A stretch of 64,000 nt of DNA from Acidimicrobiales bacterium (GTDB taxonomy: Bacteria > Actinomycetota > Acidimicrobiia > Acidimicrobiales > GCA-2861595), in the NCBI GenBank assembly GCA_036262515.1, contig DATAIT010000055.1, positions 1,532 to 65,531 of the forward strand, given 5' to 3'. The notes under the pieces are model-generated. The model did not search any database. It worked only from the letters and a program-made list of their open reading frames with translations, and was not told where the DNA came from. The position numbers and the translations under genes were made by a program. Positions 43,983 through 59,840 of this stretch are shown piece after piece (within the stretch, counting starts at the first letter, position 1; each line of letters begins with the position of its first letter).

Positions 43983-44077
43983 TGATGGAGTCGATTTCCG
44001 TCAGGGCGCCGATGGCGTCACGGGAGCACGCAGGGCGCAAGCGAACCCGGCGCCGCCCTGGCGACAAACGGTGCACA

Positions 44078-44971
44078 TCAGTCGTCCGGCGCGTCGACCT
44101 CTCGCGCCGCTCCCTCCCGCCATGCCTGGATGGGCCGGCCGATCAAGGCTTCGAGCCGGGCGTTCGGCTCCTCGAAGTAGATGCGCAGCTCGCGCTCGAC
44201 TCCGGCGCCGATCGGCGGAGGCCGGAACCCCACCTCGTTGACCCGCCGGTACTGCCGGCGGAATGCCGCTCGTATGCTCATGGGGAGCAGCCGCCTGGTC
44301 ACGTCCTTGACCGCTGGATGGGTGGAGAGCCTCGAGAGGACCTTCGAGCGGGCGCGGCCGCCGCTGTTCTCGCTGGGCATGTCCCGGCCCAGCCCCGCAC
44401 CGTCGAGCCCGCAGGAGGCGAGCAAGGGGACGACCGTGGTCGCCGGATCGGCGGCAAACTCCTCGAAGATCGCCACGTGCACGGCGTCGGCGCCGAAGGT
44501 CTCCTGAAGGCGCTCGATGTACGGGGCATACGAGCTCCATCCGAGGTAGTCCCAACGCTCGACGTTCCGGGCGTCGCCGAAGCGGTCGGCGCTCGCGTGG
44601 ATGGCGTCCTCGAAGGTCTCGATCGGCTCGTGGCCCCGGCGACGGGCATGCCAGTACGACGAGTAGGCGCGCCCGACCGGCTCTCGCAGGATGGCGATCG
44701 TCCGCACGGTCGGATTGTGCTCCCGGAGCCGGCGGACGGCTTCGGCGTGATACATCAGGCCGGCCAGCTTTCCCAGGCGCAGGCGACCGTCTCCGACGTC
44801 GGCACCGAAGTAGAAGTCCGTGGGGAACGGGCGGCCAGCCAGGTCGGCGTCCGAGAACCATGTCATCTCGGGCCGGATCTGCGCCGTGATCGCCGGATGG
44901 CGAGCGAGGTAGGCGAGGAGGCTCGTCGTGCCGCTCTTCTGCGATCCGACGATCATGAGGTCGACGGGCAT
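44078..44971 (-). CDS. Sulfotransferase 5
   Basis: 'LMIVGSQKSGTTSLLAYL' is the PAPS loop; the 3'-PB region is 'AILREPVGRAYSSYWH'. Confidence 0.85.
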   Translation of the reverse strand: MPVDLMIVGSQKSGTTSLLAYLARHPAITAQIRPEMTWFSDADLAGRPFPTDFYFGADVGDGRLRLGKLAGLMYHAEAVRRLREHNPTVRTIAILREPVGRAYSSYWHARRRGHEPIETFEDAIHASADRFGDARNVERWDYLGWSSYAPYIERLQETFGADAVHVAIFEEFAADPATTVVPLLASCGLDGAGLGRDMPSENSGGRARSKVLSRLSTHPAVKDVTRRLLPMSIRAAFRRQYRRVNEVGFRPPPIGAGVERELRIYFEEPNARLEALIGRPIQAWREGAAREVDAPDD

Positions 44972-45095: not shown

Positions 45096-46058
45096 GTGAC
45101 AGCGGCCGTTCCTTTTCCGTTCTTCGTCGGCGTCGGCCGCTCCGGCACGACCCTTCTGCGGTCGATCTTCAACGCCCACTCAGAGCTCGCCGTGGCCCAC
45201 GAGTCACGGTTCGTGGCCGAGGTGGCCCGCCATCCCGATCGCTACGACCGAGCCGGTTCATTCGACGTCGACCGATTCGTCGACGACGTCCTGGAGGACC
45301 GGAAGATCTCCCGTATCCCCGAATGGGGCATCGACGTCGAGGTGTTCCGCCACGCCGTGCAGCGGTCGGGGGCGGACAACCCGGCTGTCGCAGTGCGGTT
45401 GATCTATCGGGCCTACGCCGACGTCAACGGCAAGCCGCGCTACGGCGACAAGACGCCGGGATACGTGCGGTTCCTGACCTCGATCGGGGACCTGCTCCCC
45501 GAGGCCCGCTTCGTGCACCTCGTGCGTGACGGCCGCGACGTGGCCCTCTCCTCGAACGACGTCGACTTCGGCGCCGCCAACCTGGTACAGGCTGCCCATC
45601 GTTGGGCAGAACGGACCCGTCGAGCCCAGGACATGGGACGCCACCTCGGCCCGGCGCGGTATCTCCTTCTTCGCTACGAAGACCTGATCGACGAACCGGA
45701 ACGGGAGGTACAGAAGGCGTGCGACTTCCTCGAGTTCACCTACGAGCCGGCCATGCTCCGTTACTTCGAGGACGTCGATCGGGTGTTCGGCGGTCTCGCC
45801 GGCCAGGAGCACCATGAGCGGCTTCGGCTTCCGGTCACCAAGGGCCTCAGGGACTGGCGCCGCCAGATGCCCCCGGACGACGTTCGTCGCTTCGAGGTCG
45901 TCGCCGGGGACATGCTGTCGGAGCTGGGCTACGAGCTCACGGCGCCCGTCGACGCACGCACGACGGCGGAGCGGACGGTCACGGCCCTGCGGGTCCTGCA
46001 GGGCAGGGCCGTGGCTGCCTATCGAGCCAGGCGCCGCGCCGGCGACAAGCGCTCCTGA
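45096..46058 (+). CDS. Sulfotransferase 6
   Basis: 'FFVGVGRSGTTLLRSIF' and 'HLVRDGRDVALS'. Confidence 0.8.
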   Translation: MTAAVPFPFFVGVGRSGTTLLRSIFNAHSELAVAHESRFVAEVARHPDRYDRAGSFDVDRFVDDVLEDRKISRIPEWGIDVEVFRHAVQRSGADNPAVAVRLIYRAYADVNGKPRYGDKTPGYVRFLTSIGDLLPEARFVHLVRDGRDVALSSNDVDFGAANLVQAAHRWAERTRRAQDMGRHLGPARYLLLRYEDLIDEPEREVQKACDFLEFTYEPAMLRYFEDVDRVFGGLAGQEHHERLRLPVTKGLRDWRRQMPPDDVRRFEVVAGDMLSELGYELTAPVDARTTAERTVTALRVLQGRAVAAYRARRRAGDKRS

Positions 46059-46079: not shown

Positions 46080-48224
46080 TCAGGGATTGATCGTGCCGAC
46101 GCCTACGCCGTCTTGCAACAGCGCGCCGTCGACACCCGAGAGGCGCACCTCCATCGTCTCCACCGACTCGCCCACGGAGTCTGCGTTCGCCAGGACGTTG
46201 ATCGTCCTCGACGTCGTCCCGGCCGCGAAGGTGAGGGTACCGGAGGCGGCGGCGTAATCCCCTGGGGCGACGGCCGTGCGGTCCGCCGCTGCCCAGGCGA
46301 AGGAGACGGCCCTGCCGCTCACCGTCGACATGGTCACCGTGAAGGTCATCCTCTTCGTCCCGGTGGCCGGCTCGGTCACTGCGACGTCGGAGATGGAGAG
46401 GAGCGGGAGGGGCTCGTCATCAACGATCTCGGCACGCCCCGTCTCGTCCATCAGGGTGGCGTTCGCGGCGTTGGTCAGCACGACCTGGAAGTGTTCGTTG
46501 TCCTCGGGCAGACCGTCCTCGATGGTCGGCACGACGATGGTCCCGGACGTCGCTCCGGCGCTGATCGTCAGCCTCCCGGTGGTCTTCGAGTAGTCCACCC
46601 CGGCGGCGGCGCCGGCGTCCACCGTGGCGTAGTCGACAGTCACCGGCGCGGACGCCGGAGACGAGAGCGAGACGACGAATCTCTCCGCGACGCCCTCCTC
46701 GGCCGAAGCGTCGCCCACGCTGAGCTTGGGCGTCGTCTTCGGATCGCTGATCGTCATGCGGGCGACACCGTCGGCGATCGTGAGGTGCTGGGGGTTCGAG
46801 AGGACGACGGAAAGGTCCTCGGTCCCCTCGGTGAAGTCGCTGTCGGGGTTCACCTTCACCACGACGTTCTTCGAACGGACACCGGGACGGAAGGAGATGG
46901 TCCCCGAGGTGGCCGTGTAATCGCCCGGAGGAGTTGCCGTTCCGGGGACCGTCGTGAAATCCACGCTGACAGTGGTCTCGGTTGCCTTGTCGAGCACGAG
47001 CTTGCACGTGAGGTTCGACGTCCCGTCCAGCAGCTCGAAGGCGGACCCGTCTATGGCCTTGACGGACGGAGGAGCATCGTTGTCGTCGATCGTCCCCGTT
47101 GCGGTACCTCCGACGATGGCGGCGTTCTCGGCCGACGTGAGCCCGAAGATGAGGGTCTCCGGTGCCTCGTAGACGTTGTCGTCGACGGTCGGGATCAGCA
47201 CCGTGGCACTGGTCTGTCCCGCAGGGATGGTGACGCTGCCGGTTGTCGCCGGGTAGTCGATGTCGGCACCGGCCGTCCTGCCGGTCGTCGTGTAGTTCAC
47301 CGTGACCGGAAACAGGATCGACTCGCCGAGGCTGATGGTGAACCGCAGGCTTGCGCCCTCCGTGGCCTGGGATCCCGCCACCCGGAGATCGGCGTTCCTG
47401 CAGATTTGCTGCTTGCGAAGGCAGGTGTCGACCAGGGACAGGAGACGCGTCGGCTGCCACACGTTGAAGAAGTCGGCGTGGCCGGAGTAGATGCCTCCCG
47501 AGGCCAGGTCGTACCCGGTGCCGCCCTTGAGATCGTCGAAGTGCACGATCTGGAGCAGCGTGGGCAGCAGCGTGGGATGTGTGGCCGGGCACGTGCCCGT
47601 CTTCGGCATGTACGCCATGTGGCTCTTGTGGTCCGCGCTGTCGAGGTTCGTGCCGTCCCAGCACTCAGGGAAGATGATGCGGAGGCGGAGGTGCTGGCCG
47701 TCCCCGCAGGTCGGGATCTCCTGGGCCGGGTCGGTCCTCTCAGCGTCGTCGGAGTCCTGCGCGCAGGACCACGATGCGATGTTGACCGATTGCGGGGACG
47801 TGGCCTTCGAGTCGCCGGCGATCATTCGGAGCCCCTGAGGGTAGGGCTGCACGATCGTGGGGTCGGTGCCGGCTGCGGTGTAGTAGGCGGCGATCCGCTG
47901 CGGCCGGTGCACCACACCGTCGACGGTCAGCGAGGGAGCCCAGTACGCGGACAGATCCTCTTCGAAGTCGCAGGTGGTGCCGGCCGCCTGGAGCGACGAG
48001 AGGGTCGAAAACGCATCGGTCGAGACGTTGCCGAAGAAGTCGTGGCTGTGACTGGTGCCGGGGCGCTGGGGGGCGACGATCGGGTCATCGGTGAGCGAGC
48101 GGCCGTACGTGCAGACCGTCTTGAAGCTCGGAACGGAGTCGATCGTCGCGTGCGCCGGCGACAAGGGGGCCAGCGGAAGAAGACCGGCAAGCAGGGAGGT
48201 TACGGTGATGACGAGTCGTTTCAA
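46080..48224 (-). CDS. Secreted DUF1996-domain protein with four Calx-beta repeats
   Basis: The signal peptide is 'MKRLVITVTSLLAGLLPLAPLSPAHA' and the DUF1996 signature is 'DDPIVAPQRPGTSHSHDFFGN'. Four ~100-aa repeats follow, each with '...Y.T..GTA.AG.DY....G.L.F..G......I.V...DD...E..E'. Confidence 0.8.
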   Translation of the reverse strand: MKRLVITVTSLLAGLLPLAPLSPAHATIDSVPSFKTVCTYGRSLTDDPIVAPQRPGTSHSHDFFGNVSTDAFSTLSSLQAAGTTCDFEEDLSAYWAPSLTVDGVVHRPQRIAAYYTAAGTDPTIVQPYPQGLRMIAGDSKATSPQSVNIASWSCAQDSDDAERTDPAQEIPTCGDGQHLRLRIIFPECWDGTNLDSADHKSHMAYMPKTGTCPATHPTLLPTLLQIVHFDDLKGGTGYDLASGGIYSGHADFFNVWQPTRLLSLVDTCLRKQQICRNADLRVAGSQATEGASLRFTISLGESILFPVTVNYTTTGRTAGADIDYPATTGSVTIPAGQTSATVLIPTVDDNVYEAPETLIFGLTSAENAAIVGGTATGTIDDNDAPPSVKAIDGSAFELLDGTSNLTCKLVLDKATETTVSVDFTTVPGTATPPGDYTATSGTISFRPGVRSKNVVVKVNPDSDFTEGTEDLSVVLSNPQHLTIADGVARMTISDPKTTPKLSVGDASAEEGVAERFVVSLSSPASAPVTVDYATVDAGAAAGVDYSKTTGRLTISAGATSGTIVVPTIEDGLPEDNEHFQVVLTNAANATLMDETGRAEIVDDEPLPLLSISDVAVTEPATGTKRMTFTVTMSTVSGRAVSFAWAAADRTAVAPGDYAAASGTLTFAAGTTSRTINVLANADSVGESVETMEVRLSGVDGALLQDGVGVGTINP

Positions 48225-48367
48225 GGCGGTTTCTCCATGCGTCGGACAGCGGCTCCGCCTAACGTCGGCCTCCGCGGATGTCCTCTTGAGGAGCGACCGG
48301 CGGGGCCCGCGCGCTAGCCGCGTCGAGATCGCTACGCTTGTCCGAGGACGGCAGCAGGGGGAGAGAC

Positions 48368-49270
48368 ATGGGTTCGGCCAACTTCGATCTGGGTGTCGCC
48401 GGCTCCCGGAGGGTCGACCGCGTGACCGGCGTCGTGGAACAGGCGGCGTTCGTCCCTCAGGACGACGGCACGCAGCTGTTCGTCATGGTGCATGAGCCGC
48501 CCGCCGAGCCTCGCGGCGGGGTTCTCATGTTCTCGTCGATCCTGGCCGACTTCATGTCGAACTACCAACGCGAGGTCCATCTCGCGCGCAGCCTCGCGGC
48601 GGCCGGCTTGGTGGTGATGAGGTTCCACTATCGCGGCACCGGGAACAGCGACGGCGACGCGGCGGACGTCACGCTCGGGTCGCTGCAGGACGATGGTCGT
48701 TGGTCGGTCGACTTCATGGGCAGCCGGCTCGGCAACCTGCCCCTCGGACTTCTCGGGACCCGCTGGGGTTCGCTGGCGGCGGCCGCCGCCGCCCGTGACC
48801 TCCCCACCGGGCCGGTGGTGCTCTGCGAACCGGTCGTCGATGCGTCGCGGTACTTCGTGGAGGCGTGGCGCAGCCGGGCCATGAGTGCCGTCGCCCTCGG
48901 CAGGACGGCCGGCACGGGCGAGCGTCTGGCCGACGTCATCGTTCGCCAGGGCTACGCGGACGTGGTGGGGAACGTCATCCACCGCGCGCTCTTCGACAGC
49001 GCAGCGGGCGGCGGCACGCTCGACGAGTACGACCTGGCCCGGCGCCCGGTCCTCGTCGTGCAGTTCGGTGGGAACGAGTTGCGGCCGGCGAACCGGACGC
49101 TTCGTGACCATCTCGACGGCAACGGCGCGGCGGTCGAGACGTCGACGGTCGACCTCCAGGAGAGCTGGTGGTTCCGCTCCGGCCCGCGAATCGTCCTCCA
49201 CCCCGAGCTCAACCGCCTGATCGCGGGCTGGTTCGTCTCGCAGGTGACGACCACCGAGGTCGGCCGATGA
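48368..49270 (+). CDS. Alpha/beta-hydrolase-fold protein with Arg at the nucleophile-elbow position
   Basis: ORF 48338-49270; the ATG at 48368 is preceded by GGGGGAGAG. The elbow-like motif 'LLGTRWGSLAAAAAA' reads G-x-R-x-G instead of G-x-S-x-G. Confidence 0.55.
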   Translation: MGSANFDLGVAGSRRVDRVTGVVEQAAFVPQDDGTQLFVMVHEPPAEPRGGVLMFSSILADFMSNYQREVHLARSLAAAGLVVMRFHYRGTGNSDGDAADVTLGSLQDDGRWSVDFMGSRLGNLPLGLLGTRWGSLAAAAAARDLPTGPVVLCEPVVDASRYFVEAWRSRAMSAVALGRTAGTGERLADVIVRQGYADVVGNVIHRALFDSAAGGGTLDEYDLARRPVLVVQFGGNELRPANRTLRDHLDGNGAAVETSTVDLQESWWFRSGPRIVLHPELNRLIAGWFVSQVTTTEVGR

Positions 49271-50175
49271 GTGTGACCTCGCGTCAGGAGTCGCCGGTCA
49301 TCTTCGAGGCGGCGGGAGAAGACCTGTTCGGAATCTTCACCCGACCCTTGGTCTCCAATGGCACGGCGGTCCTCGCATTGTGGGGCGCCGGCGGCTTTCC
49401 CACGTTCGGGAAGAACCAGGTGCGGATCCGACTCGCCCGCCAGCTCGCCGAAAACGGGTTCCACGTGCTCCGCGCTGATTACCGCGGCGTCGGGGAGAGC
49501 GGAGGGGAGTCCCGGGACGTCGACCTGTCGAAGCCCTGGATCGACGACGCCCTCGGCGCCGTCCGCTGGCTGGAGTCGCAGGGCTTCGAGCGGATCGCCA
49601 TCGTCGGGAACTGCTTCGGGTCGCGGACCGGACTGGCCGCCGCGTCCAGCATCCCCGGACTGGTGGGGCTCGCGTTGGTGGCTGCTCCGGTCAGCGAGGC
49701 CGATCACCGCGAGGCGATCCTCGGGCACTCCTTGTCGTGGTACCTGAAGCGGGCTCGCTCGATGCGAACCTTGCGGCTCCTGGTCTCGGGTGGCCTCGCC
49801 AAGCGGGTCCGCAGCGTGCTGAAGGCGAAGGTGCGCCGATCCGTACGGCCATCGAAGGCAGCGGACGCACCCGCGTCCGGCACCGCCAGTGAGCAGTACT
49901 TGCAGCCGCTCGAGGGCGTGCTGGCGCGGCGGATTCCGGTCCTGCTCCTCTACGGGCGGGGCGACGACTTCTATCCCGAGTTCGAGCGGGCCATGGACGG
50001 TCCGCTCGGTCGCATGCTCGACGGCGCAGGCGACCTCGTGACGCTCCGGGTGGTCGACGACCGGATCGGGGGGATGGCTAGCATCGAGGCGCAGAACACC
50101 TTCCTCGAGACCGTGACCGCCTGGCTCGATCGCGTGGCGGGGTCGTCAGACCATGACGTGGCACGTGACGGGTGA
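49267..50175 (+). CDS. Alpha/beta-hydrolase-fold protein with a Cys nucleophile elbow
   Basis: Starts at the ATG at 49267 (an ATGA overlap with the upstream gene): MSVTSRQESPVIFEAAGEDLFGIF... The elbow 'IAIVGNCFGSRTG' reads G-x-C-x-G. Confidence 0.6.
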   Translation: MSVTSRQESPVIFEAAGEDLFGIFTRPLVSNGTAVLALWGAGGFPTFGKNQVRIRLARQLAENGFHVLRADYRGVGESGGESRDVDLSKPWIDDALGAVRWLESQGFERIAIVGNCFGSRTGLAAASSIPGLVGLALVAAPVSEADHREAILGHSLSWYLKRARSMRTLRLLVSGGLAKRVRSVLKAKVRRSVRPSKAADAPASGTASEQYLQPLEGVLARRIPVLLLYGRGDDFYPEFERAMDGPLGRMLDGAGDLVTLRVVDDRIGGMASIEAQNTFLETVTAWLDRVAGSSDHDVARDG

Positions 50176-50258: not shown

Positions 50259-52163
50259 TTGATCCGGTTCGCGAGGCGGACCTTCATCGTCCTCGACCGG
50301 GCGGCCAGGGTCCGGTTCATCCTGTTCGCCCTCGGCTCCGTGGTGATCGCCGCCATCGAGGGTGTGGGCGTGGCGCTGGTGGTCCCCCTGACGCAGATGC
50401 AGGTCGGCAAGCACGGGGGGAAACTTCCCACCGCAGCCCGCTTCGTCAGCCGGCTCTTCGATCTGAAGACCGAGGGCCAGGCCACCCTGGCGCTGGCGAT
50501 CCTCGTCGTGATCTCGTTCTCGGTGAAGGCCATCGGCGCCATCGAGCTGCTGTGGTGGGGCATCGGCAACTCCCTCGATCAAGAGGCCCGCATCGCCCGC
50601 CGGTTGTTCACGCGCTACCTCACCGCGCCGCGGACCTACCACCTGGCCCACAACTCGGCCGAGATCCAGCGGACGTTGAACGAGGCGCTTCTCATCGTCT
50701 TCCGCCGGTCGCTGCCTTTCGTCCTGGCGGCGGCGGCCGATGCCTTCACGCTCGTGGCGGTGGCCGCCGTGATCGTCGTCAGCGACCCGGTGATCGCTTC
50801 GGTCGCCATCGTGTACTTCGGGCTCGTCGCCGTCGTGTACCAACTGTGGATCGGCGGCCGTCAGCGAGCGGCCGCCATCGCCGCCCACGCCGAGATCGCG
50901 CTTCGCTACCAGCAGGTCCAGGAGGCGATGCGGGCCACCAAGGAGCTGGCCATCCTCCACCGGGAGGAGCACTTCATCTCCCGCTTCTACAAGACGAAGA
51001 TCGAGCTGGCGAGCAAGCAGCGGCTCCTCATCCTCTACCAGCTCCTCCCGCGCCAGTTCCTCGATCTCGCGTTCGTGCTGGGCGCCGCCCTCATGGCCGC
51101 GTTCGCGTTCGCGACCCGAACGAACGAGCAGGCGTTGGCCAGCGTGGGCCTCTTCCTCACGGCCAGCTTCCGGCTCGTGGCGCCGCTGAACCGCGTCATG
51201 GGGGCGACCACCGTCACCCGGACGGCCCAGCCGGCGATCGACCAGGTCGTGAACGACCTTGCCGAGCTCGACGCCCTGCACGGCCTGCGGGCGCACGCCG
51301 ACGTGGATCCGCTCGGACCCGTGCCGCTCGAGCTGACGGACGTGCACTTCCGCTACGGCGAGGATCTGCCCGACGTGCTCCAGCGCATCTCGATGACGAT
51401 CGCCCCTGGGGAGGACGTCGCCATCGTCGGGACCACGGGTGCGGGCAAGTCCACACTGCTCGACATCATGCTCGGCCTCCTCGACCCGCAGACGGGGGAG
51501 ATCAAGGTCGGTGGACGGCCATTGCACGAGTGTCGAACCGCATGGCAGCTCACCATCGGCTACGTCCCGCAGGACATCGTCCTCATCGACGACACGATCC
51601 GGGCGAACGTGGCCTTCGGCATCGACCGCGCCGACATCGACGACGACAAGGTGTGGGAGGCCTTGCGAATCGCCCAGATCGACACGTTCGTCGCCTCTCT
51701 CTCCGGGGGTATCGACAACGTGGTCGGCGAGCAGGGCGTCCGGCTGTCGGGCGGGCAGCGCCAGCGGCTCGGCCTGGCGCGGGCCATGTACGACGGCCCG
51801 GCGGTGCTCGTGCTCGACGAGGCGACGTCGTCGCTGGACTCCAGCACCGAGGCTCGGATCATCGAGACGATCGCATCGCTGCGAGGCCGCCTCACCATTA
51901 TCACGGTGTCACATCGCCTCAGCACGCTGAAGCACTGCGACCGCATCTACTACCTCCGCGACGGCTCGGTCGTCGCCGTGGGCACGTTGGACGAGTTGCG
52001 GGCCTGCGACCGGGAGTTCGCCGAGCTCGTGACGTTCGCCGAGCTCGGCACCAGTCGGCCGTCCCGCGACGTGGCTGCCGGCGTCAACGGCGAAGGGGAC
52101 CCGGCCGATGTCTCGTCGGAGCGGCCCGGGTGGAAGCGCGGCATCCCGCGCCGGCGACCCTGA
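50259..52163 (+). CDS. Fused permease/ATPase ABC exporter (MsbA/type I exporter-like)
   Basis: 634 aa with six N-terminal TM helices. Walker A is 'GTTGAGKSTLLD', the signature is 'LSGGQRQRLGLARA' and Walker B is 'VLVLDEATS'. The start is a TTG. Confidence 0.9.
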   Translation: MIRFARRTFIVLDRAARVRFILFALGSVVIAAIEGVGVALVVPLTQMQVGKHGGKLPTAARFVSRLFDLKTEGQATLALAILVVISFSVKAIGAIELLWWGIGNSLDQEARIARRLFTRYLTAPRTYHLAHNSAEIQRTLNEALLIVFRRSLPFVLAAAADAFTLVAVAAVIVVSDPVIASVAIVYFGLVAVVYQLWIGGRQRAAAIAAHAEIALRYQQVQEAMRATKELAILHREEHFISRFYKTKIELASKQRLLILYQLLPRQFLDLAFVLGAALMAAFAFATRTNEQALASVGLFLTASFRLVAPLNRVMGATTVTRTAQPAIDQVVNDLAELDALHGLRAHADVDPLGPVPLELTDVHFRYGEDLPDVLQRISMTIAPGEDVAIVGTTGAGKSTLLDIMLGLLDPQTGEIKVGGRPLHECRTAWQLTIGYVPQDIVLIDDTIRANVAFGIDRADIDDDKVWEALRIAQIDTFVASLSGGIDNVVGEQGVRLSGGQRQRLGLARAMYDGPAVLVLDEATSSLDSSTEARIIETIASLRGRLTIITVSHRLSTLKHCDRIYYLRDGSVVAVGTLDELRACDREFAELVTFAELGTSRPSRDVAAGVNGEGDPADVSSERPGWKRGIPRRRP

Positions 52164-52385
52164 CCGGCTCGAACGTCGCAGAAAAGACGCCGGGACGGTG
52201 CCCGGGTGCGAACCGGCGCCGACTGCCGGAGGAGCAGCCTCAGCCGGGCCGCTACCGGGGCCGCGAGCCGGTGCGTGCAGCGGGCGGGACGAGCTCAGCC
52301 GGACGCGGAAACTCGCCGGTCGACGACGCCGACCGGCTCACCGTGACGGCGCGGGCCGTCAGGGAAGAGTTCCGCCTGAGACATC

Positions 52386-52413
52386 GATGAGGGCCCCAGC
52401 CGGGGCTCTCATC
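52386..52413 (-). terminator. GC-rich hairpin 10 nt downstream of the precursor-peptide stop
   Basis: gatgagggcccc-agcc-ggggctctcatc. This is 11 of 12 stem pairs with a tetraloop. Such a hairpin could act as an attenuator or stabiliser after a RiPP precursor gene. Confidence 0.5.
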
Positions 52414-52422
52414 AAGACCGAT

Positions 52423-52593
52423 TTAGTGTTTGTGTCCGCCGCAGCTGCCCGGGCCAGACACGCAGGAGAAGTTCGACAGGAACGCCGACGAGTCGTGCAC
52501 GGTGCCCGTCTTGCCTGGAGGTGCCGGCATCCTCGTCAGTTCAGAGACCAGCCCCAGCACTCGCATGTCCGGAGCCTCATACCTGGAGTCCAT
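52423..52593 (-). CDS. Candidate lasso-type RiPP precursor peptide (56 aa; below the ORF-track size cutoff)
   Basis: My own codon-by-codon translation gives MDSRYEAPDMRVLGLVSELTRMPAPPGKTGTVHDSSAFLSNFSCVSGPGSCGGHKH. The leader motif Y-x-x-P-x-(L/M)-x3-G-x5-T-x has exactly the lasso-leader spacing. GGGGGGA lies 3 nt upstream of the ATG, a promoter-like element is upstream, a hairpin is downstream, and the maturation genes are adjacent. Confidence 0.7.
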   Translation of the reverse strand: MDSRYEAPDMRVLGLVSELTRMPAPPGKTGTVHDSSAFLSNFSCVSGPGSCGGHKH

Positions 52594-52649: not shown

Positions 52650-52678
52650 ATGATAGAGCCCGGTTCCTCCCATGTCCA
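52650..52678 (-). promoter_or_regulatory. Sigma70/SigA-like promoter for the precursor gene
   Basis: On the minus strand, -35 TGGACA (52673-52678) is separated by a 17-nt spacer from -10 TATCAT (52650-52655). The -35 hexamer overlaps the ATG (52672-52674) of the divergent kinase-like gene. Confidence 0.45.
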
Positions 52679-53535
52679 CCTTTCCCTTGCCCTCCTCGTC
52701 CGATGCCGTGGGCGGGCAGTGCCCGGGGGCCTACGGCCTGGGCTTCTCGGGGCTCGCCGACCCTTCCTTCCTCGCCACCGCCGCCCCCCACTGGCCGGTC
52801 GTCGAAGTCGTGCGCCGGCGAGGGCGCGTGACCGACGCCCGCACGACGCTCGACGGACGTGGAGCGCAGTTCGAGCTCACGGAGGGGGGCAGCCTCGTCA
52901 TCGAGCGGGCGGCGCGGCGGTCGGTGTTCACCACACCCGACGAGCTGTCCGACCCGGAGCTGGTCCACCCCCACCTGGCGCCTGTCGGAGCCGCCTTCGC
53001 CTGGTGGGCCCAGCATGAGGCGTTCCATGCTGGCGCCGTCGCCGTCGACGGAGGGGCGTGGGCGATCCTCGGCGACCGGAGCGCAGGCAAGAGCTCGACG
53101 CTCGCGCAGCTCGCCCTGGCCGGGCACGACGTCATCTGCGACGACATGCTCGTCATCGATCACGGCCGCGCCCTGGCCGGCCCCCGCTGCGTCGACCTCC
53201 GTCTGGCGACGGCCGAGGGCTTGGGGATCGGCAAGCCGATGGTGATCCGCGGCGGGCGGGAGCGGTGGCGGGTGGCGCTCGGCCCGGTACCGGCGGAGCT
53301 TCCATTTCGCGGGTGGATCTTCCTCGCCTGGGGCGACGACCTCAGCGCCGACCGCCTCCCGGGCGGCGAGCGCCTGGCCCTGCTGGCGGGCCATCGAAGC
53401 GTCATGATCGAGCCGACCGACCCGTCCACGCTGCTCGAGCTGGCGTCCCTTCCGGCGTGGTGCCTGACGCGCCCGAAGCAGCTCTCGTCGCTACCGGTTG
53501 CCGTCGACCGGCTGCTCGACCTCACGATGTCGTGA
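52672..53535 (+). CDS. HPr-kinase-like P-loop protein (HprK-related kinase)
   Basis: 287 aa. 'WAILGDRSAGKSSTLAQLALAGHDVICDDMLVI' matches the HprK C-terminal-domain P-loop plus the following Asp pattern. It is convergent with, and overlaps by 45 nt, the Asn-synthetase-like gene. Confidence 0.65.
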   Translation: MSTFPLPSSSDAVGGQCPGAYGLGFSGLADPSFLATAAPHWPVVEVVRRRGRVTDARTTLDGRGAQFELTEGGSLVIERAARRSVFTTPDELSDPELVHPHLAPVGAAFAWWAQHEAFHAGAVAVDGGAWAILGDRSAGKSSTLAQLALAGHDVICDDMLVIDHGRALAGPRCVDLRLATAEGLGIGKPMVIRGGRERWRVALGPVPAELPFRGWIFLAWGDDLSADRLPGGERLALLAGHRSVMIEPTDPSTLLELASLPAWCLTRPKQLSSLPVAVDRLLDLTMS

Positions 53536-54693
53536 GGTCGGGGCCCCCGCGGCCGTCTCGGCGAGCCACGCCGACTGGATGAGGAGCGAGCTGCGTGCGT
53601 CGGGTTGCTCGTCGAGCCACTCGCGCCGCAGGGCGGCGTGGTCGACCAGGCCGGGATCCACGCCCCCACCGTGCCAGGACCGGGCGAACGACCGGCTGTG
53701 CTCGGTCCAGAATGCGGCGTTGAACGGCGCCTTGGTGCGGCGCCGCAGGATCGCCTCGGGCAGGGCATCGCCGAACAGCCGCTCCATCCACGCAGTGCGG
53801 TCGCCGATGCCGAAGCGCCCGCCGTCGGAGGCCATGGCGGCGAGGAAGCGGTCGTCGGCGAGCGGGTGCACGGCCAGGGCGCCTGCGTCGCGAGCGAGCA
53901 GGTCGAAGCTGTGGATGGTGAGCCGGAGTCCTCGAAGGCGCGCCCACCATCGCACCCGCCGGTCCCACCGCAGCGGCTCGGCGGATCCGGAGGCAGCCCA
54001 GGCCCGGTTGACGGCGCGCGCCGCAGGAGCCCGCAGCCACGGGAGCGGCGGTCCCTTCCCGTCCATGAGAAGGCCCACTGCCCGGATCGGCCGAGGCGAC
54101 AGGGCGAGCCCGAGGCGGACCACGTCACGGGGGATGGGACGAGCCCGCCCGGCCAAGACGGCGGCCGCCCTCGCCCAGCGCCAGGACGCGAGCAGCCCGT
54201 CCCCGTCGATCCCCGTCAGGACCGAGCCTCCCTTGCACGCGTCGAGCACCGGCACGTGGAAGTGGGAGTTGGCCGGCCAGAGAACCCCGTGTCGTCCGAG
54301 GACCTTCTGCGCGATCGGTCCGACCAGGTCGAGCTCGTCGTCGAAGTCGACCCGGGACCAGTCGTCCAGGCCGAGGTGGCGGACGACGGTCTCCTGCCAG
54401 TCCGTCTCGTCGGTCTCGGGGGCTCCCGGGAACCGGTGGGTCACGGGGATCGGGAGAGGAAGCCCTTCCTTCCTCGCCACGGAGGTGGCCACGGCCAGGA
54501 CGGCCGACGAGTCGCGCCCACCCGAGAAGCTGACGACGCACGGCGGCCGCCGGAGCGCCGAAAGGACAGCCGACTCGAAGCAGGACAGCGGCGTCGCTCC
54601 CGCGATCGCGCCGGGAACAGCGGGACCGGGGACCAGTCCAATGGGGGATCCCGAGACGAGATCGAGCGGGCTCAGGGCGTACGGGTCATCCAT
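53491..54693 (-). CDS. Asparagine-synthetase-like PP-loop ATP pyrophosphatase (lasso-cyclase homologue lacking the N-terminal domain)
   Basis: 400 aa with the PP-loop 'VVSFSGGRDSSAVL' at residues ~53-66. There is no Ntn/glutaminase-like domain, and its start overlaps the B2 stop by 8 nt. Confidence 0.75.
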   Translation of the reverse strand: MDDPYALSPLDLVSGSPIGLVPGPAVPGAIAGATPLSCFESAVLSALRRPPCVVSFSGGRDSSAVLAVATSVARKEGLPLPIPVTHRFPGAPETDETDWQETVVRHLGLDDWSRVDFDDELDLVGPIAQKVLGRHGVLWPANSHFHVPVLDACKGGSVLTGIDGDGLLASWRWARAAAVLAGRARPIPRDVVRLGLALSPRPIRAVGLLMDGKGPPLPWLRAPAARAVNRAWAASGSAEPLRWDRRVRWWARLRGLRLTIHSFDLLARDAGALAVHPLADDRFLAAMASDGGRFGIGDRTAWMERLFGDALPEAILRRRTKAPFNAAFWTEHSRSFARSWHGGGVDPGLVDHAALRREWLDEQPDARSSLLIQSAWLAETAAGAPTSRHREVEQPVDGNR

Positions 54694-55060
54694 GGCTGTA
54701 GTCGGATGGCGCTATCGACATCAGCCCGTCGAACGACTCCTCGTGGCACGAGGCGTGACCCTCGAGCCATGCGTGTGCGCTGAAGTCGGCGCTGGAGCCC
54801 CTCACGCCCACGACGACGTTGTGCAACCGGCCGTGCGCGCTGTGCCAGGCCTGCAACAGCAGGCTGCGCTCCAGGCACGTATGGCGGCGGCGCCGCAGTA
54901 CGGCGCCGACACCCCGCAGGGCGTTCTCCGGCAGGGGCGGCGGAGGCGGGACCACGATCCGGTCCACCCGCTGCGTCCGCAGCTGCTGGCGCAGGCGGGG
55001 CAGCGTGCGGTACGCCCACAGCGCAGCCCGGAGGTCGCTCCGGGTGATCCGGCGCGTCAC
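54686..55060 (-). CDS. Lasso-peptide B2-type transglutaminase-like cysteine protease
   Basis: These are the last 124 aa of ORF 54686-56713, from the GTG at 55058-55060: '...RRRRHTCLERSLLLQAWHSAHGRLHNVVVGVRGSSADFSAHAWLEG'. This shows the Cys...His signature of the PF13471 family. It forms a GTGA overlap with the PqqD stop. Confidence 0.8.
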   Translation of the reverse strand: MTRRITRSDLRAALWAYRTLPRLRQQLRTQRVDRIVVPPPPPLPENALRGVGAVLRRRRHTCLERSLLLQAWHSAHGRLHNVVVGVRGSSADFSAHAWLEGHASCHEESFDGLMSIAPSDYSHG

Positions 55061-55323
55061 GGCCCGTCGAGCAGGCCCCGCTTCCGGAGCTCCTCCAAGA
55101 AGTGGTCGACGTCGCGTGACGCCGTCTCGGGATCGATGCCGAACTCGTCCACCACACGGGCCACGAGCTCGTCCGTTCGAGCGCCTTCGGCCAACGCCTC
55201 CCACAACAGCGCGGCGGTGTGGTTCCCCGCCAGGTAGACCCGTCCCGGCACGTCGAGGACGATGACCTCGCCGTCGACCACGCGCCACGTCAGACCATCG
55301 GTTCGCAATTGCACCTGCTCCAT
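55057..55323 (-). CDS. PqqD-family RiPP recognition element (lasso B1)
   Basis: Starts at the ATG at 55321-55323: MEQVQLRTDGLTWRVVDGEVIVLDVPGRVYLAGNHTAALLWEALAEGARTDELVARVVDEFGIDPETASRDVDHFLEELRKRGLL. This is the classical PqqD pattern. Confidence 0.85.
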   Translation of the reverse strand: MEQVQLRTDGLTWRVVDGEVIVLDVPGRVYLAGNHTAALLWEALAEGARTDELVARVVDEFGIDPETASRDVDHFLEELRKRGLLDGP

Positions 55324-55395: not shown

Positions 55396-56250
55396 TCAAT
55401 AGACGCCGAGGGTGCCGAGGCGTCGTTCGCGCTGCAACGCCAGGCGGAAAACCACGTGGCCCACGCACAGCGACAACACCGCCATGGGGACGAGCACGGC
55501 AATGTCGTCGACGATGCTCGCCCACCCCGCCCCGTTGAGCAGTGCATGGCGCATGGCCTGGAGGGCGATGGCGACGGGACTGTGCTGCACCACCCGAGCC
55601 GCGCCTGACGGGAGGAGCCCGATCGGAAAATAGGCGCCCGACCCGACGGTCAGCGCCGAGGCGGCGAGGCCCACGAAGCCGGACCCCCGGCGGATGGTGA
55701 GCACGGAGGCGGCGCACAAGCTCCCCAGGCCCCAGACGAAGGGGATGAGTGCGAGGAGCACGACCGTCGCCGGTAGCAGCCCGGCCAGCGAGAAGTCGAC
55801 GCCCAGGGTGACGGAGACCAGCAGCAGGAAGATCGCCGTCCGGATCGGCACGTAGAGCAGGTCGTAGATGACGAGCCCCAGTTGCAGGGTGGCGGCAGAC
55901 GTGGGCGTCACGAGGAGCGCCTCGAGCGTGCCGGTCAACTGCTCGCTGCGCATCTGGCTCGTCACCTGCACGAGCGCGACCTGGATGAAGCCCGCCACTG
56001 CGATCCCGATCGTCACGAAGCCGAGGTAGCTCGCCCGGGTCGCCCCGACGCCCTGGATGCGGGCGGGATCGACGAGACGGCTCACGAAGTAGAAGGTGAA
56101 GATCTGGAGAACGAGGCCCAAGGCGTCCTGCAGGTACGCCAGGCGGTAGCTCCAGGCGATGAGCAGGTCCCGGCGGACGAAGGCTCCCAGCTTCCGGGGC
56201 TCGGGAACGATGCCGCCGAACTGGTCGTGCGCCGACGCGGCCTCGGACAT
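55396..56250 (-). CDS. ABC-2-type transporter permease
   Basis: Starts at the ATG at 56248-56250 (MSEAASAHDQFGGIVPEPRKLGAFVRRDLLIAWSYRLAYL...). It has six hydrophobic segments and forms an ATGA overlap with the ATPase gene. Confidence 0.8.
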   Translation of the reverse strand: MSEAASAHDQFGGIVPEPRKLGAFVRRDLLIAWSYRLAYLQDALGLVLQIFTFYFVSRLVDPARIQGVGATRASYLGFVTIGIAVAGFIQVALVQVTSQMRSEQLTGTLEALLVTPTSAATLQLGLVIYDLLYVPIRTAIFLLLVSVTLGVDFSLAGLLPATVVLLALIPFVWGLGSLCAASVLTIRRGSGFVGLAASALTVGSGAYFPIGLLPSGAARVVQHSPVAIALQAMRHALLNGAGWASIVDDIAVLVPMAVLSLCVGHVVFRLALQRERRLGTLGVY

Positions 56251-57296
56251 CACGGCGGTCCCTCCGAGACGAGCCGGAGGAAGGCCTGCTCGATGCCCGA
56301 GCCCTCCTCCTCGCAACCGAGCACCTGGTACCCGTTTCCGGTGAGAGCGGAGATGGGATCGCCCAAGACCGCGTCCCCGCTGAGGGTGAGCGCGTAGCGG
56401 TCGATGCCGGAGCGGTCGCCCCCGACGGGGACCATCGTGGCCATCCCGGTGACAACGTCGGCGGGAGGACGCGGCTTCTGCGCCGTCGGGCCTGCCCGGA
56501 GCGTGACCATGTATCTCCTCGTCCCGGCCGTCGACGCCAGGCCCTCGACCGTGCCGCTGTAGCGGAGCTCCCCGCCCGCGAGCACCAGGACCCGGTCGGC
56601 GAAGTTGCGGAGCTCCTCCAGGCGTTGGGTGACCCACATCGCCGCCGCCCCGTGCGCGACGGCTTCCCGCACCAGCCCCTGGACCTGCCCCCTCGCGTTT
56701 GGATCCAGGTCATGCGTGGCCTCGTCGCAGAGGAGCAGCTTCGGCTCGACGAGGAAGGCCCGGGCCAGGACCAGCCGCTTCTGCATCCCGTGTGAGTACA
56801 GACCGACGCGGACGCGGGCTGCCTCCGAGAGGCCGACCTGGGCGAGAACCTCCTCGGCCCGCACGACCGCCTCCCGGTAGCGCTGCCCGTTGAGGCGGGC
56901 GAAGAAGACGAGGTTCTCCAGGCCCGACATCCGCAGGTAGAAGGTGCGATCGACGCCGGGCGCCCACCCCGTGAGCTGTCGTGCCGCCAGCTGGCCCGGC
57001 TGGTGCCCGAACACCCGCACTCGTCCGTAGGAGGGCTCCACCAGCCCGGTCAGGATGCGAAGGAGGGTGCTCTTGCCGGCGCCGTTGGCGCCGACGAGGC
57101 CGACGATCTCCCCCGGGGGCACGTCCAATGAGATGCCTCGCAGGACGGTTTTGGCACCGAAGCGCTGCACGACGTCGACCGCCTCTATGGCCGGCACCTC
57201 GCGAGACGGCGCCGGGATGGGCGCCGGCGTTCCGGGCATCACCGCTGCGGCATCGACTTCTGCAGCCACCGACCCAGCACCTCTCGCCTGGTCCAC
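56250..57296 (-). CDS. ABC transporter ATP-binding protein
   Basis: Walker A is 'GANGAGKSTLLR', the signature-like motif is 'YSHGMQKRLVLARA' and Walker B is 'LLLCDEATHDLD'. The start is uncertain (ATG at 57296 or 57240). Confidence 0.9.
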   Translation of the reverse strand: MDQARGAGSVAAEVDAAAVMPGTPAPIPAPSREVPAIEAVDVVQRFGAKTVLRGISLDVPPGEIVGLVGANGAGKSTLLRILTGLVEPSYGRVRVFGHQPGQLAARQLTGWAPGVDRTFYLRMSGLENLVFFARLNGQRYREAVVRAEEVLAQVGLSEAARVRVGLYSHGMQKRLVLARAFLVEPKLLLCDEATHDLDPNARGQVQGLVREAVAHGAAAMWVTQRLEELRNFADRVLVLAGGELRYSGTVEGLASTAGTRRYMVTLRAGPTAQKPRPPADVVTGMATMVPVGGDRSGIDRYALTLSGDAVLGDPISALTGNGYQVLGCEEEGSGIEQAFLRLVSEGPP

Positions 57297-57520
57297 CCGC
57301 TCACGGGCACCCGCCTCGTACTCCGTGCTCGGCGCGCCCGTCGCCCACAGCGTGGTTCACCGCACCCGGGCGCGCAAACGAGCGCGCACCCGCGCGCAGC
57401 GACGACCGGCCGATCGGCGGCACCTCCATCGGATTGCACACGCGTGGACAATTGGGCGGAAACGTGCGCACCATAGGGCCGGAAGGGAAGCGGCGGTCGC
57501 TTCCGGGACAGGGGGTAGAG

Positions 57521-58810
57521 ATGGCGCACGCCAAACATCTGTCGAGGTCGGGGCGCGGACGGGTCTCCACGGCTGCGACAACTGCGGCGTTGCTGGGCAC
57601 GATGCTCTTCATAGCGCCCGGTGCGGCCACGGCCGCTGGCGGAGGCTACGCCTACAGCGGCCGTGCCTACGGCACGTCGGTCAATGTGGGCAACCTCGTC
57701 ACATCCGGCCCGTCGTCGGTCGTCGGTGTCGGATGCACCGACGAGGCGGGGATTCACAAGACGAACACGCTGGCCACGATCGACGTGTCGCCGATCGTCA
57801 CCTCCGGGACGATCAACACGTCCGTCGACACGAGTGCCACAGCCACGAGCCAGCAGTCACAGTCGACCTCCGAGGTCCAGAACGTCTCGTTGCTGGACGG
57901 GCTCATCACGGCCGATGCCGTTCGAGCAGTCAGCACCACGTCGCACGACGGATCCGGGTTCCACAGCACCGGCGCCGGGTCCACCTTGGTGAACCTGAAG
58001 ATCGGCCTGACGACCATCGGGGCCACCCCGGCACCCAACACCACCGTGCCTCTCGTCGGGCTCGGCTCAGTCGTCCTGAACGAGCAGACGTCGAAGGTCA
58101 CGAACAAGGGTGCGTCCTACAGCGTCAACATGATCCACGTCTTCATCACGACCCAGAACCTGCTCGGCATCCCCGTGGGCACAGACATCGTCGTCGCCCA
58201 CGCCAAGAGCGACCTGCACGGCCCGACGCTCGCCATCCTCGACGGGCGGGCCTACGGCACGTCGGCCAATGTCGGCGAACTCGTCGAGTCCGGTCCGACT
58301 GCGCTGGTCTCCATGCCGTGCCTGGGCACCAAGGGAATCCTTCACGGCAACGACGTCCTCGGGGTCAACCTGCCCGGCATCCTGACGTCGGGGACTGTGG
58401 CCACAACGGCCGAGGGGTCGATCCGCAAGACGAGGGCGGACGGCGAGACGACAGCCACCGTCGAGGGCCTCGACCTGCTCGACGGCCTCGTGACGGCAAC
58501 GGTCATCAAGGCCGATGCGCATGCATCCATGAGCGGGGGCACGCTCACCTTCAGCGACGAGGGATCCACCTTCGCCGACCTCCAGGTGGCGGGCCATCCC
58601 GAGATCACGGCGGATGCCGCCCGGAACACCAGGATCGACCTGCTCGGACTGGGCACCCTGTGGCTGCATCGGGTGATCCAGGGTTCGAACCGGATCGAGG
58701 TGCGGATGGTCGAGCTGATCATCACCGAGCCGGGGAACGTCCTCGGGCTGGCCGTCGGCACGGACGTGCGGGTGGCCGTGGCCGAGGCGTCGGTCCACCC
58801 GTCGACCTAG
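57521..58810 (+). CDS. Secreted protein built from two tandem ~190-aa repeats (possibly the 'choice-of-anchor P'-like family)
   Basis: Starts at the ATG at 57521, preceded by GGGGGTAGAG, with a signal peptide ('TTAALLGTMLFIAPGAATA'). Repeat 1 is 'GRAYGTSVNVGNLVTSGPSSVVGVGC...LLDGLITADAVRA...' and repeat 2 is 'GRAYGTSANVGELVESGPTALVSMPC...LLDGLVTATVIKA...'. Confidence 0.6.
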   Translation: MAHAKHLSRSGRGRVSTAATTAALLGTMLFIAPGAATAAGGGYAYSGRAYGTSVNVGNLVTSGPSSVVGVGCTDEAGIHKTNTLATIDVSPIVTSGTINTSVDTSATATSQQSQSTSEVQNVSLLDGLITADAVRAVSTTSHDGSGFHSTGAGSTLVNLKIGLTTIGATPAPNTTVPLVGLGSVVLNEQTSKVTNKGASYSVNMIHVFITTQNLLGIPVGTDIVVAHAKSDLHGPTLAILDGRAYGTSANVGELVESGPTALVSMPCLGTKGILHGNDVLGVNLPGILTSGTVATTAEGSIRKTRADGETTATVEGLDLLDGLVTATVIKADAHASMSGGTLTFSDEGSTFADLQVAGHPEITADAARNTRIDLLGLGTLWLHRVIQGSNRIEVRMVELIITEPGNVLGLAVGTDVRVAVAEASVHPST

Positions 58811-58907: not shown

Positions 58908-59840
58908 GTGACGGACAGCCACGCGATGACGGCACATCCGTTCGAGTTGAGCCACCTCGAGGAGCTCGAGGCAGAAGCCGTCTTCGTGATGCGCGAGGTG
59001 GCGGCCGAGCTGAAGCGACCGGTCCTGTTGTTCAGCGGGGGAAAGGACTCGGTCGTCCTCCTGCGCCTGGCCGAGAAGGCCTTCCGCCCCGCCGGGTTCC
59101 CGTTCCCGATCATGCACATCGACACGGGTCACAACTTCCCGGAGGTGCTCGAGTTCCGGGACCGACGGGTCGCCGAGCTGGGCGAACGCCTCATCGTGGC
59201 CAGCGTCCAGGAGTCCATCGACCGCGGACGCGTGATCGACGAGACCGGTCCGCGGGCGTCCAGGAACCGGCTCCAGACGACCACGCTCCTCGACGCCATC
59301 GAGGAGCACGGCTTCGACGCCTGCTTCGGCGGGGCACGCCGCGACGAGGAGAAGGCCCGCGCCAAGGAACGCTTCTTCTCGTTCCGGGACGAGTTCGGCC
59401 AGTGGGACCCTCGGAACCAGCGACCGGAGCTCTGGCACGTCTACAACGGCCGGGTCCGCGAGGGTGAGCACATCCGTGCCTTCCCGATCTCCAACTGGAC
59501 CGAGCTCGACGTCTGGCAGTACATCGCCCGCGAGGGCCTCGAGCTGCCGTCGATGTATTTCGCCCACAAGCGGGAGGTCGTCGAGCGTGACGGGATGCTG
59601 CTGGCCACCGGTCCGCACCTGCCGGCGGTCGACGACGAAGCGCCGTTCGTCGCCACGGTGCGCTACCGGACGGTCGGTGACATGTCGTGCACCGGCGCCG
59701 TCGTCTCCTCGGCGTCGACGCTGGAGGAGGTCATCGCCGAGGTCAGCGCCACTCGGGTGACCGAGCGAGGAGCGACGCGCGCCGACGACAAGTTCTCCGA
59801 GGCGGCCATGGAGGACCGCAAGAAGGAGGGGTACTTCTAG
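58908..59840 (+). CDS. cysD: Sulfate adenylyltransferase subunit 2
   Basis: GTG start. The PAPS-reductase-like PP-loop is 'VLLFSGGKDSVVLLRLA', with 'GARRDEEKARAKERFFSFRD', 'ISNWTELDVWQYI' and the C-terminal 'RKKEGYF'. Confidence 0.95.
   Translation: MTDSHAMTAHPFELSHLEELEAEAVFVMREVAAELKRPVLLFSGGKDSVVLLRLAEKAFRPAGFPFPIMHIDTGHNFPEVLEFRDRRVAELGERLIVASVQESIDRGRVIDETGPRASRNRLQTTTLLDAIEEHGFDACFGGARRDEEKARAKERFFSFRDEFGQWDPRNQRPELWHVYNGRVREGEHIRAFPISNWTELDVWQYIAREGLELPSMYFAHKREVVERDGMLLATGPHLPAVDDEAPFVATVRYRTVGDMSCTGAVVSSASTLEEVIAEVSATRVTERGATRADDKFSEAAMEDRKKEGYF

Follow-up and report, generated by a model that had tools for sequence, protein, structure and literature searches.

Which residues could close the ring of a lasso-type peptide whose leader carries the recognition code of lasso precursors but whose core has no acidic residue at the positions where a lasso ring is normally closed? 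The question is raised by an open reading frame (ORF) at positions 52423-52593 (minus strand) of a 64,000-nucleotide stretch from a soil-metagenome Acidimicrobiales bacterium (GenBank assembly GCA_036262515.1, contig DATAIT010000055.1, positions 1,532 to 65,531), referred to as the window throughout. The requirement that residue 1 supplies the ring amine is built into mining tools and is the reason why removal of the leader and cyclization are thought to be coupled. Every characterized lasso ring is closed by the alpha-amine of residue 1, a rule kept in current reviews, and a review of June 2026 still takes N-terminal attack as what defines a lasso ring (PMC13352647). Comparative analysis identifies the ORF as the predicted precursor gene (A) of a lasso-type cluster for a peptide synthesized ribosomally and modified post-translationally (RiPP) and, with about 170 relatives compared, points to an internal Lys as the ring nucleophile. 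Genes in the window were called by frame analysis of GC content at third codon positions (GC3) and annotated using Pfam and NCBIfam. The precursor gene and its parts are as follows.

52423-52593 (minus strand): precursor peptide gene, 56 amino acids plus stop codon (translation, coding signal, homologues, metatranscriptome contig)
52531-52593 (minus strand): leader M1-R21, with the pattern Y5-x2-P8-x-M10-x3-G14-x5-T20-R21 (NF033521 alignment, conservation)
52513-52530 (minus strand): N-terminal core spacer M22-P-A-P-P-G27, probably kept as a free N-terminal tail (spacer conservation, family Cys pairing)
52492-52512 (minus strand): K28-T-G-T-V-H-D34, predicted 7-residue Lys N-epsilon-Asp C-gamma isopeptide ring of 26 atoms (K28 and D34 invariant in the sub-branch, family K-x5-D; codons verified in the sequence)
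52441-52464 (minus strand): C44 to C51, predicted tail-tail disulfide loop CVSGPGSC (family Cys pairing, NFSC...C conserved)

The translation of the minus strand from 52593 to 52423 is MDSRYEAPDMRVLGLVSELTRMPAPPGKTGTVHDSSAFLSNFSCVSGPGSCGGHKH. Cleavage after R21 places Y5, P8, M10, G14 and T20 at positions -17, -14, -12, -8 and -2 and leaves a core of 35 residues that opens with M-P-A-P-P and contains a single acidic residue, D34 of the precursor or D13 in core numbering. A first-pass annotation of the locus had reported the translation, the Tyr, Pro, Met and Thr positions, the core length and the sole Asp, all of which were reproduced exactly, and its deduction that a core starting at M22 cannot form a ring of 7-9 residues from residue 1 also holds, the only acidic residue being at position 13. 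The core, MPAPPGKTGTVHD..., thus departs from the lasso core rule (a small residue 1 with Asp or Glu at position 7, 8 or 9), and so do 61 of 103 non-redundant relatives.

Regarding the leader, the window peptide agrees with the lasso code YxxPxLx3Gx5Tx with Thr at -2, M10 taking the Leu position. The NCBIfam model NF033521 (lasso_leader_L3) aligns to precursor residues 5-21 with 12.5 bits, under its 19-bit cutoff, and five of the seven family relatives tested pass this cutoff (20.5-30.4 bits), including the close homologue L082. Close homologues were obtained by neighborhood mining and by an exhaustive phmmer search with the window peptide against 1.84 billion representative proteins, which was run with no motif filter and contributed 14 of the 18. 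In the resulting 19-sequence alignment (A4) the Tyr, Pro, Gly and Thr of the leader are invariant, and the Y-to-T spacing is constant in every homologue, including the 14 motif-independent finds. The first-pass annotation had held that the leader fits the lasso code and had named missing conservation of the Y/P/L/T positions in homologues as grounds for abandoning the idea; conservation was found, and the assignment stands. The leader of the precursor has the B1/B2 recognition code, and the fixed distance from Tyr and Pro to Thr points to B1-guided B2 cleavage after T20-R21, as in other lasso systems. Genes for the predicted processing enzymes adjoin the precursor, as the first-pass annotation had also stated and the Pfam and NCBIfam matches bear out.

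55057-55323 (minus strand): lasso B1, PqqD-like RiPP recognition element of 88 amino acids (Pfam PqqD, E = 1.8e-16)
54686-55060 (minus strand): lasso B2 leader peptidase, transglutaminase-like Cys protease of 124 amino acids (NF033537, Pfam Transglut_core3)
53491-54693 (minus strand): short AsnB-type enzyme of 400 amino acids consisting of the synthetase domain only, putative macrolactam synthetase C (Pfam Asn_synthase, fold of the AlphaFold2 model)
52672-53535 (plus strand): P-loop kinase-like gene of HPr-kinase/PEPCK fold, antisense to the biosynthetic operon (fold, invariant residues)

B1 has a Pfam PqqD match of 60.7 bits (cutoff 23.4), as expected of a RiPP recognition element, and matches the NCBIfam lasso_PqqD models with 43.8 and 33.4 bits, under their cutoffs of 70 and 80. 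B2 passes NF033537 (39.1 bits, cutoff 33) and has the TCLERS (Cys) and HAW (His) motifs of the leader peptidase. The Pfam Asn_synthase match to C reaches 39.7 bits against a 21-bit cutoff, whereas the lasso cyclase model NF033535 gives 17.2 bits against a cutoff of 525, with a match just around the PP-loop. This loop, SFSGGRDSS, occupies residues 55-63 of C, and since SGGRDS lies at residues 57-62 the N-terminal domain (about 200 amino acids) is missing, so that C does not have the two-domain architecture of AsnB-homologous lasso cyclases. Sequence-only searches of the PDB gave marginal matches only, and fold searches were hence used for C and for the kinase-like protein. The AlphaFold2 model of C (mean predicted local distance difference test, pLDDT, 92.8) is matched best by TsnB9, asparagine synthetase, beta-lactam synthetase and carbapenam synthetase; Pfam match and fold agree on a carboxylate-adenylating synthetase domain, which supports adenylation of a carboxylate followed by amide formation as the probable chemistry of C.

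The short AsnB-type enzyme defines a large uncharacterized family in soil Actinomycetota, comprising 1,436 proteins at E < 1e-5 (347-465 amino acids among the 120 best of these, mostly 380-430). The single-domain form of the enzyme and the membership of the window locus in this family go beyond what the first-pass annotation had described. Family loci number 314 among about 186,000 species-representative genomes and 381 in metagenomes of the Joint Genome Institute (JGI). Almost all hosts are uncultured soil Actinomycetota (Thermoleophilia, Gaiellaceae, Solirubrobacterales, Acidimicrobiia), with Blastococcus aurantiacus DSM 44268 as a cultured example. The conserved gene order, examined in 80 of the 314 genome loci, is ABC (ATP-binding cassette) ATPase, permease, often NTP_transf_5, B1, B2, short C, antisense kinase and one to five precursors. 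Two precursor types stand side by side in L016, L025, L029, L062, L068, L071 and other loci (about 10050-10400), the first having a short spacer and the ending ..K..G.SDGFTF...NASP, the second a long Cys-bearing spacer and the ending ..C.W.KTIGPPDY...NCSS.

A leader-motif scan of 164 loci yielded 157 unique peptides and 103 non-redundant cores; most family precursors were thus gathered by a regular expression for the leader, and conservation of P(-14) and T(-2) among them is by construction. Of the 103 cores, 71 have the motif K-x5-D, compared with 6.5 +/- 2.4 (maximum 15) in shuffled cores, and while Lys was counted 71 times at six residues before Asp, no other offset was counted more than 13 times. 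The Lys lies 0-19 residues past the Thr-x cleavage site (core positions 1-20), and the distance from the N-terminus to the Asp varies from 7 to 26. Position 1 of the K-type cores is occupied by 17 different residues and the position preceding Lys mostly by D (36), G (16), N (14), E (9) or T (7). Sister clades that differ by one N-terminal residue (K1-x5-D7 and E1-K2-x5-D8) keep the same K-D spacing. Some 24 cores lack Lys and are of the textbook lasso kind, with G1 and D8 or D9 (GVGLASTDG..., GGTGIIHGD...); the cyclases of such canonical cores group together in a neighbor-joining tree, where the window enzyme clusters with those of L081, L082, L083, L043, L127 and L021, all of the K type. Regarding Cys, 38 cores contain two, just two cores contain one and the others none. 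The partners in 26 cores are one Cys in the spacer before Lys and one near the C-terminus (GCDK...CTSS, TGCYWNK...NCSS), while cores with no spacer Cys end in ...NASP. Ser is found within the last three residues of 89 of 104 K-type cores.

Within the sub-branch of the window peptide (alignment A4), the invariant residues are Y5, P8, G14, T20, G27, K28, D34, S36 and F38. The spacer measures 3-9 residues, the tail Cys pair (NFSC...C) is kept in 12 homologues, and Met1 of the core is not conserved. The window peptide ends in ...GGHKH and does not have the conserved C-terminal Ser. A word-indexed protein search with the 56-residue peptide returned nothing but its own 54-residue allele, and for the phmmer match P0246 the context contigs are all shorter than 700 bp.

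The ORF is a genuine gene and not a chance ORF, as shown by its homologues and their synonymous changes, by the ribosome-binding site and promoter-like site in front of it, by a terminator-like hairpin downstream and by a metatranscriptome contig. Its GC content at codon positions 1, 2 and 3 is 0.56, 0.54 and 0.79 in a stretch of 70% GC, 12 codon differences from the L082 homologue are synonymous, and a purine-rich ribosome-binding site precedes the ATG, with one of the same kind in each homologue. The two predicted control elements lie on either side of the gene.

52650-52678 (minus strand): sigma-70-like promoter candidate for the precursor, TGGACA-17-TATCAT (consensus match only)
52379-52419 (minus strand): stable hairpin, candidate terminator between convergent genes (-27.6 kcal/mol, z = -2.6)

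The promoter candidate has 10 of 12 consensus matches, with 0.0 expected from shuffled sequences, and the hairpin begins 4 nt past the precursor stop codon and has no T-run. In the soil metatranscriptome X12 a 166-nt contig spans 52453-52618 with one mismatch and is the sole full-length contig match to the 7.2-kb cluster, and a second run, X10, has a 207-nt contig over 52392-52604. These contigs are modest evidence of transcription, as DNA carry-over is possible and they carry no strand information. Run X10 also contains a natural allele, likewise present as protein P0001 (54 amino acids), in which a 6-nt deletion at window positions 52426-52431 drops the last two codons and the peptide ends in ...CGGH. 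Several options for the bond had been listed in the first-pass annotation, and these fared differently: the isopeptide through Lys7 of the core (K28), paired with Asp13 (D34), is strongly favored by the K-x5-D count, whereas Lys34 of the core (K55) is dispensable, being absent from this allele, and the disulfide between Cys23 and Cys30 of the core (C44 and C51) is supported by the strict pairing of Cys in the family.

Taken together, these data suggest a pathway in which B1 would bind Y5, P8 and M10 and B2 would cut after T20-R21, upon which the short AsnB-type enzyme would adenylate the side chain of Asp34 and the epsilon-amine of Lys28, not the newly formed alpha-amine, would attack. The product would be a 7-residue isopeptide ring of 26 atoms, with the Pro-rich hexapeptide MPAPPG left as a free N-terminal tail, the 22-residue C-terminal segment probably threaded through the ring, and the Cys44-Cys51 tail-tail disulfide loop able to serve as a plug. 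The predicted neutral monoisotopic mass with lactam and disulfide is 3433.54 Da, to which each phosphate would add 79.97 Da. As with PadeK and PsmK, a precursor Ser is the probable substrate of the kinase-like enzyme, and the invariant S36 is a candidate because the usual C-terminal Ser is missing; the ABC systems may export the product, protect the producer, or both. Lys is the suggested nucleophile because it is the partner that stays six residues from the Asp while the N-terminus shifts by up to 19 residues. Since the spacer Cys pairs with a tail Cys in 26 cores, the spacer is probably retained in the product, so that trimming back to G27 or K28 is disfavored. Counted in atoms, a Lys(i)-Asp(i+6) ring has 26, the same as Gly1-Glu8 and between the 25 of G1-D8 and the 28 of G1-D9 in the canonical clade, and one active-site geometry could therefore serve both. 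We infer the nucleophile, the threading, the phosphorylation site and the target of the kinase from sequence comparison, and we give the combination of cleavage after R21, the Lys28 N-epsilon-Asp34 ring and the Cys44-Cys51 disulfide about an even chance of being correct.

The alternative that survives best is a second trimming, in which a shifted B2 cut or another peptidase would remove MPAPP and the alpha-amine of G27 would join D34 to give the ring GKTGTVHD. The first-pass annotation had put forward a core starting at G27, and within the sub-branch such a core is compatible with the data, PPG-K being found in 19 of 19 sequences; G1-D8 is moreover the commonest type of lasso ring, the same enzyme family serves G1-D8 and G1-D9 cores, and two nearby alpha/beta-hydrolase genes have weak matches to proline-specific peptidase families. 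Across the family the idea is disfavored, as the residue preceding Lys varies (D, G, N, E, T). Sub-branch spacers measure anywhere between 3 and 9 residues and family spacers between 0 and 19, whereas the Y-to-T distance is fixed, and a B1-anchored protease acting at a constant distance could not reach the PP|G position. The pairing of spacer and tail Cys in 26 cores and the want of any extra conserved protease in the synteny block also speak against it. Trimming by the two hydrolases was rejected, their genes being found in none of the 80 genome relatives, nor in L165. A ring from G27 after removal of the spacer is thus considered unlikely.

A different objection is that the short AsnB-type enzyme makes no ring at all but, for example, amidates or otherwise derivatizes Asp34 or the C-terminus, in which case K-x5-D would be a recognition motif and the product linear or held by a disulfide only. 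The missing N-terminal domain of C, its 17 bits with the curated cyclase model and its best structural match to TsnB9, an intermolecular amidotransferase, fit such a role. The presence of B1, B2 and a lasso leader, however, and the textbook G1-D8 or G1-D9 cores with suitable tails that make up about a quarter of the family do not, nor is a conserved glutaminase domain or other amine-donor gene found, and a non-cyclizing enzyme is accordingly rated improbable. The odds are poorer still for a cut directly before K28, with its alpha-amine joined to D34 in a canonical 7-residue ring. This would account for the constant K-x5-D spacing and would suit L066 and L069, where Lys follows Thr-Gln directly (K1-x5-D7), but the residues two positions before Lys are W, C, I, Q or L and neither Thr nor Ile as at -2, the paired spacer and tail Cys would be wasted, and no lasso cyclase is known to take Lys as first residue. 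Lastly, a 13-residue ring from the M22 alpha-amine to D34, another of the options first listed, would retain canonical chemistry (alpha-amine and Asp) and the canonical Thr-x cleavage site, with Lys kept for its charge, for binding or for some other reason, but is very improbable, as the ring would span 7-26 residues among close relatives of one enzyme family although known lasso cyclases take rings of about 7-10 residues (PMC13352647), position 1 is unconstrained (17 residue types) and the strict Lys at D-6 would go unexplained.

Several observations weigh against the Lys28-Asp34 ring or the data behind it. The invariance of G27 in the window sub-branch is compatible with a canonical 8-residue ring from the G27 alpha-amine to D34 after spacer removal, and the C-terminal Ser that known lasso kinases modify is missing from the window peptide. 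Leader conservation is independent of the search motif in the 14 phmmer finds and the NCBIfam matches only, the RNA support is one short contig with no strand information, and the cyclase tree is a simple neighbor-joining tree in which canonical cores form about one clade, so that core type and phylogeny are confounded. Locus L103 (1314-3122) encodes five tandem precursors and one short cyclase; four of the five have K-x5-D inside a canonical-looking core starting with G1 or A1, and one (GFETGGLDSISQGTV) has no Lys and a G1-D8 core. This mixture under a single cyclase indicates that some family members probably use the alpha-amine, and L103 may capture a transition between alpha-amine and Lys-type rings.

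With these reservations, the Lys-to-Asp ring can be extended from the window peptide to the whole family, which is tentatively proposed, at slightly less than even chances, to be a new lasso class with a single-domain cyclase, an internal Lys epsilon-amine joined to Asp (K-x5-D, 26 atoms) and a free N-terminal tail of variable length that in many members would be locked by a disulfide to the threaded tail at the C-terminus; the resulting topology, two-tailed or figure-of-eight, would lie outside classes I-V. If this is true, the family breaks the residue-1 alpha-amine rule, a minimal synthetase domain of 400 amino acids suffices for lasso-type cyclization, and the lasso scaffold, valued for its stability and in drug design, gains a free N-terminal handle and new disulfide topologies. 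It would also explain why hundreds of lasso-looking clusters have no core that current scoring accepts. No account of a Lys-ring lasso peptide, a short lasso cyclase or these core motifs was found in the literature covered, which leaves out most subscription journals, and none of the family in the June 2026 review (PMC13352647); an earlier report is possible.

Among known systems, the paeninodin and pseudomycoidin clusters (pade, psm) share with the window locus split B1 and B2 proteins, an AsnB-type C, an HPr-kinase-like kinase with a DD metal site and ABC export (PMC9266682, PMC6993621). Relatives of the window locus additionally have NTP_transf_5 (the PsmN family, an uncharacterized nucleotidyltransferase) and sulfotransferases in common with this type, and these genes and the kinase tie the family to paeninodin/pseudomycoidin-type clusters. 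The rings of paeninodin and pseudomycoidin are canonical (Ala1-Asp9), whereas the window core has an N-terminal spacer and K-x5-D, and unlike that type the window has a single-domain C of 400 amino acids, an antisense kinase, no C-terminal Ser and no NTP_transf_5 (no match was obtained in the window). The system would work like a split-B lasso pathway of the paeninodin/pseudomycoidin type, but departs from the core rule and from the two-domain cyclase.

Compared with the lasso classes, the tail-tail disulfide of class IV (LP2006, felipeptins; PMC7689547) is as predicted for the two tail Cys of the window peptide, and the tail-ring disulfide of class III (PMC13352647) resembles L001, L021 and L083, whose two Cys are split between the ring segment and the tail. 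Both classes have a ring closed by the residue-1 alpha-amine, with neither an N-terminal extension nor the extension-tail disulfide predicted for 26 family cores. Class V peptides (gelatinamin A, lariocidin B) also contain a Lys epsilon-amine isopeptide; there, however, a canonical N-terminus-Asp8 ring is joined by a second macrocycle, from Lys to the C-terminus, which a clostripain-like transpeptidase closes after export (PMC13178200), whereas the window Lys would form the primary ring. No clostripain-like peptidase was found among the ORFs scanned at 37.8-62.8 kb, nor is there a canonical ring, and class V chemistry (Lys to C-terminus) was rejected for want of such a gene and on account of the allele missing K55. 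Graspetides (microviridins), with their omega-amide lactams between Lys and Asp or Glu side chains, contain chemically the same bond as predicted for the window peptide, Lys N-epsilon to Asp C-gamma, but form it with ATP-grasp ligases via acyl phosphates under another leader system, in contrast to the PP-loop adenylating AsnB homologue with lasso B1 and B2 in the window; no ORF scanned in the same 37.8-62.8 kb matched ATP-grasp. Beta-lactam, carbapenam and asparagine synthetase B domains share the fold and the PP-loop with C and, as predicted for C, adenylate a carboxylate before forming an amide, and in beta-lactam and carbapenam synthetases the amide is formed intramolecularly; these enzymes, however, retain a (pseudo)glutaminase domain at the N-terminus and have small molecules as substrates, and their identity to C is 12-18%.

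Regarding the kinase-like gene, the protein has a Pfam Hpr_kinase_C match of 18.2 bits, under the cutoff of 33.3, and its AlphaFold2 model (pLDDT 92.5) is matched best in Foldseek by PEPCK and HprK/P. Its invariant residues are H99, H119, K140, D157 and D158, an arrangement that parallels the lasso-kinase motif His-Lys-Asp-Asp and, in PsmK, the metal site D158/D159 (PMC9266682, PMC6993621) and is that of an HPr-kinase-like lasso kinase. The gene stands between C and the precursor. In 61 of the 69 genome loci in which a kinase was detected, it runs antisense to the B1-B2-C operon, so that the precursor requires its own promoter. The 3' ends of the kinase gene and of C overlap by 45 nt in the window, and an overlap is found in many relatives too; convergent transcription may regulate the kinase or C. 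The transport genes of the cluster are as follows.

55396-56250 (minus strand): ABC-2 permease, export or immunity (Pfam/NCBIfam)
56250-57296 (minus strand): DrrA-like ABC ATPase, export or immunity (Pfam/NCBIfam)
50259-52163 (plus strand): MsbA-like fused ABC exporter, convergent with the precursor (Pfam/NCBIfam)

The ATPase and permease stand upstream of B1 in most relatives, and a homologous MsbA-like exporter adjoins the precursor in L081 and in the clade with canonical cores. Two alpha/beta-hydrolase genes in tandem (48365-49270 and 49267-50175, both plus strand) lie upstream of the MsbA-like exporter in the same orientation and have weak matches to the peptidase families S33, S15 and S9.

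The flanks of the cluster contain two sulfotransferase genes and a CysD/CysN-like sulfate-activation pair (44078-44971, minus strand; 45096-46058, 58908-59840 and 59841-61091, plus strand), and in L082 a sulfotransferase and a GT4 glycosyltransferase are encoded directly upstream of B1. The peptide, or a polysaccharide produced alongside it, may be sulfated. The window clade tends toward neighborhoods of exopolysaccharide genes: a fusion of a Wzz chain-length determinant and a ParA/BY-kinase-like ATPase is encoded near the cluster at 42258-44000 (minus strand), and Wzy_C, CbiA/AAA_31 and NTP_transf_5 adjoin the cluster in L083 (1-3462). A large secreted-looking protein with DUF1996 and four Calx-beta domains (46080-48224, minus strand) is seemingly unrelated to the cluster. 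The ORF at 57500-58810 (plus strand) has a signal-like segment at its N-terminus and two halves that resemble each other (…GRAYGTSxNVGxLVxSGP…) and belongs to no Pfam family.

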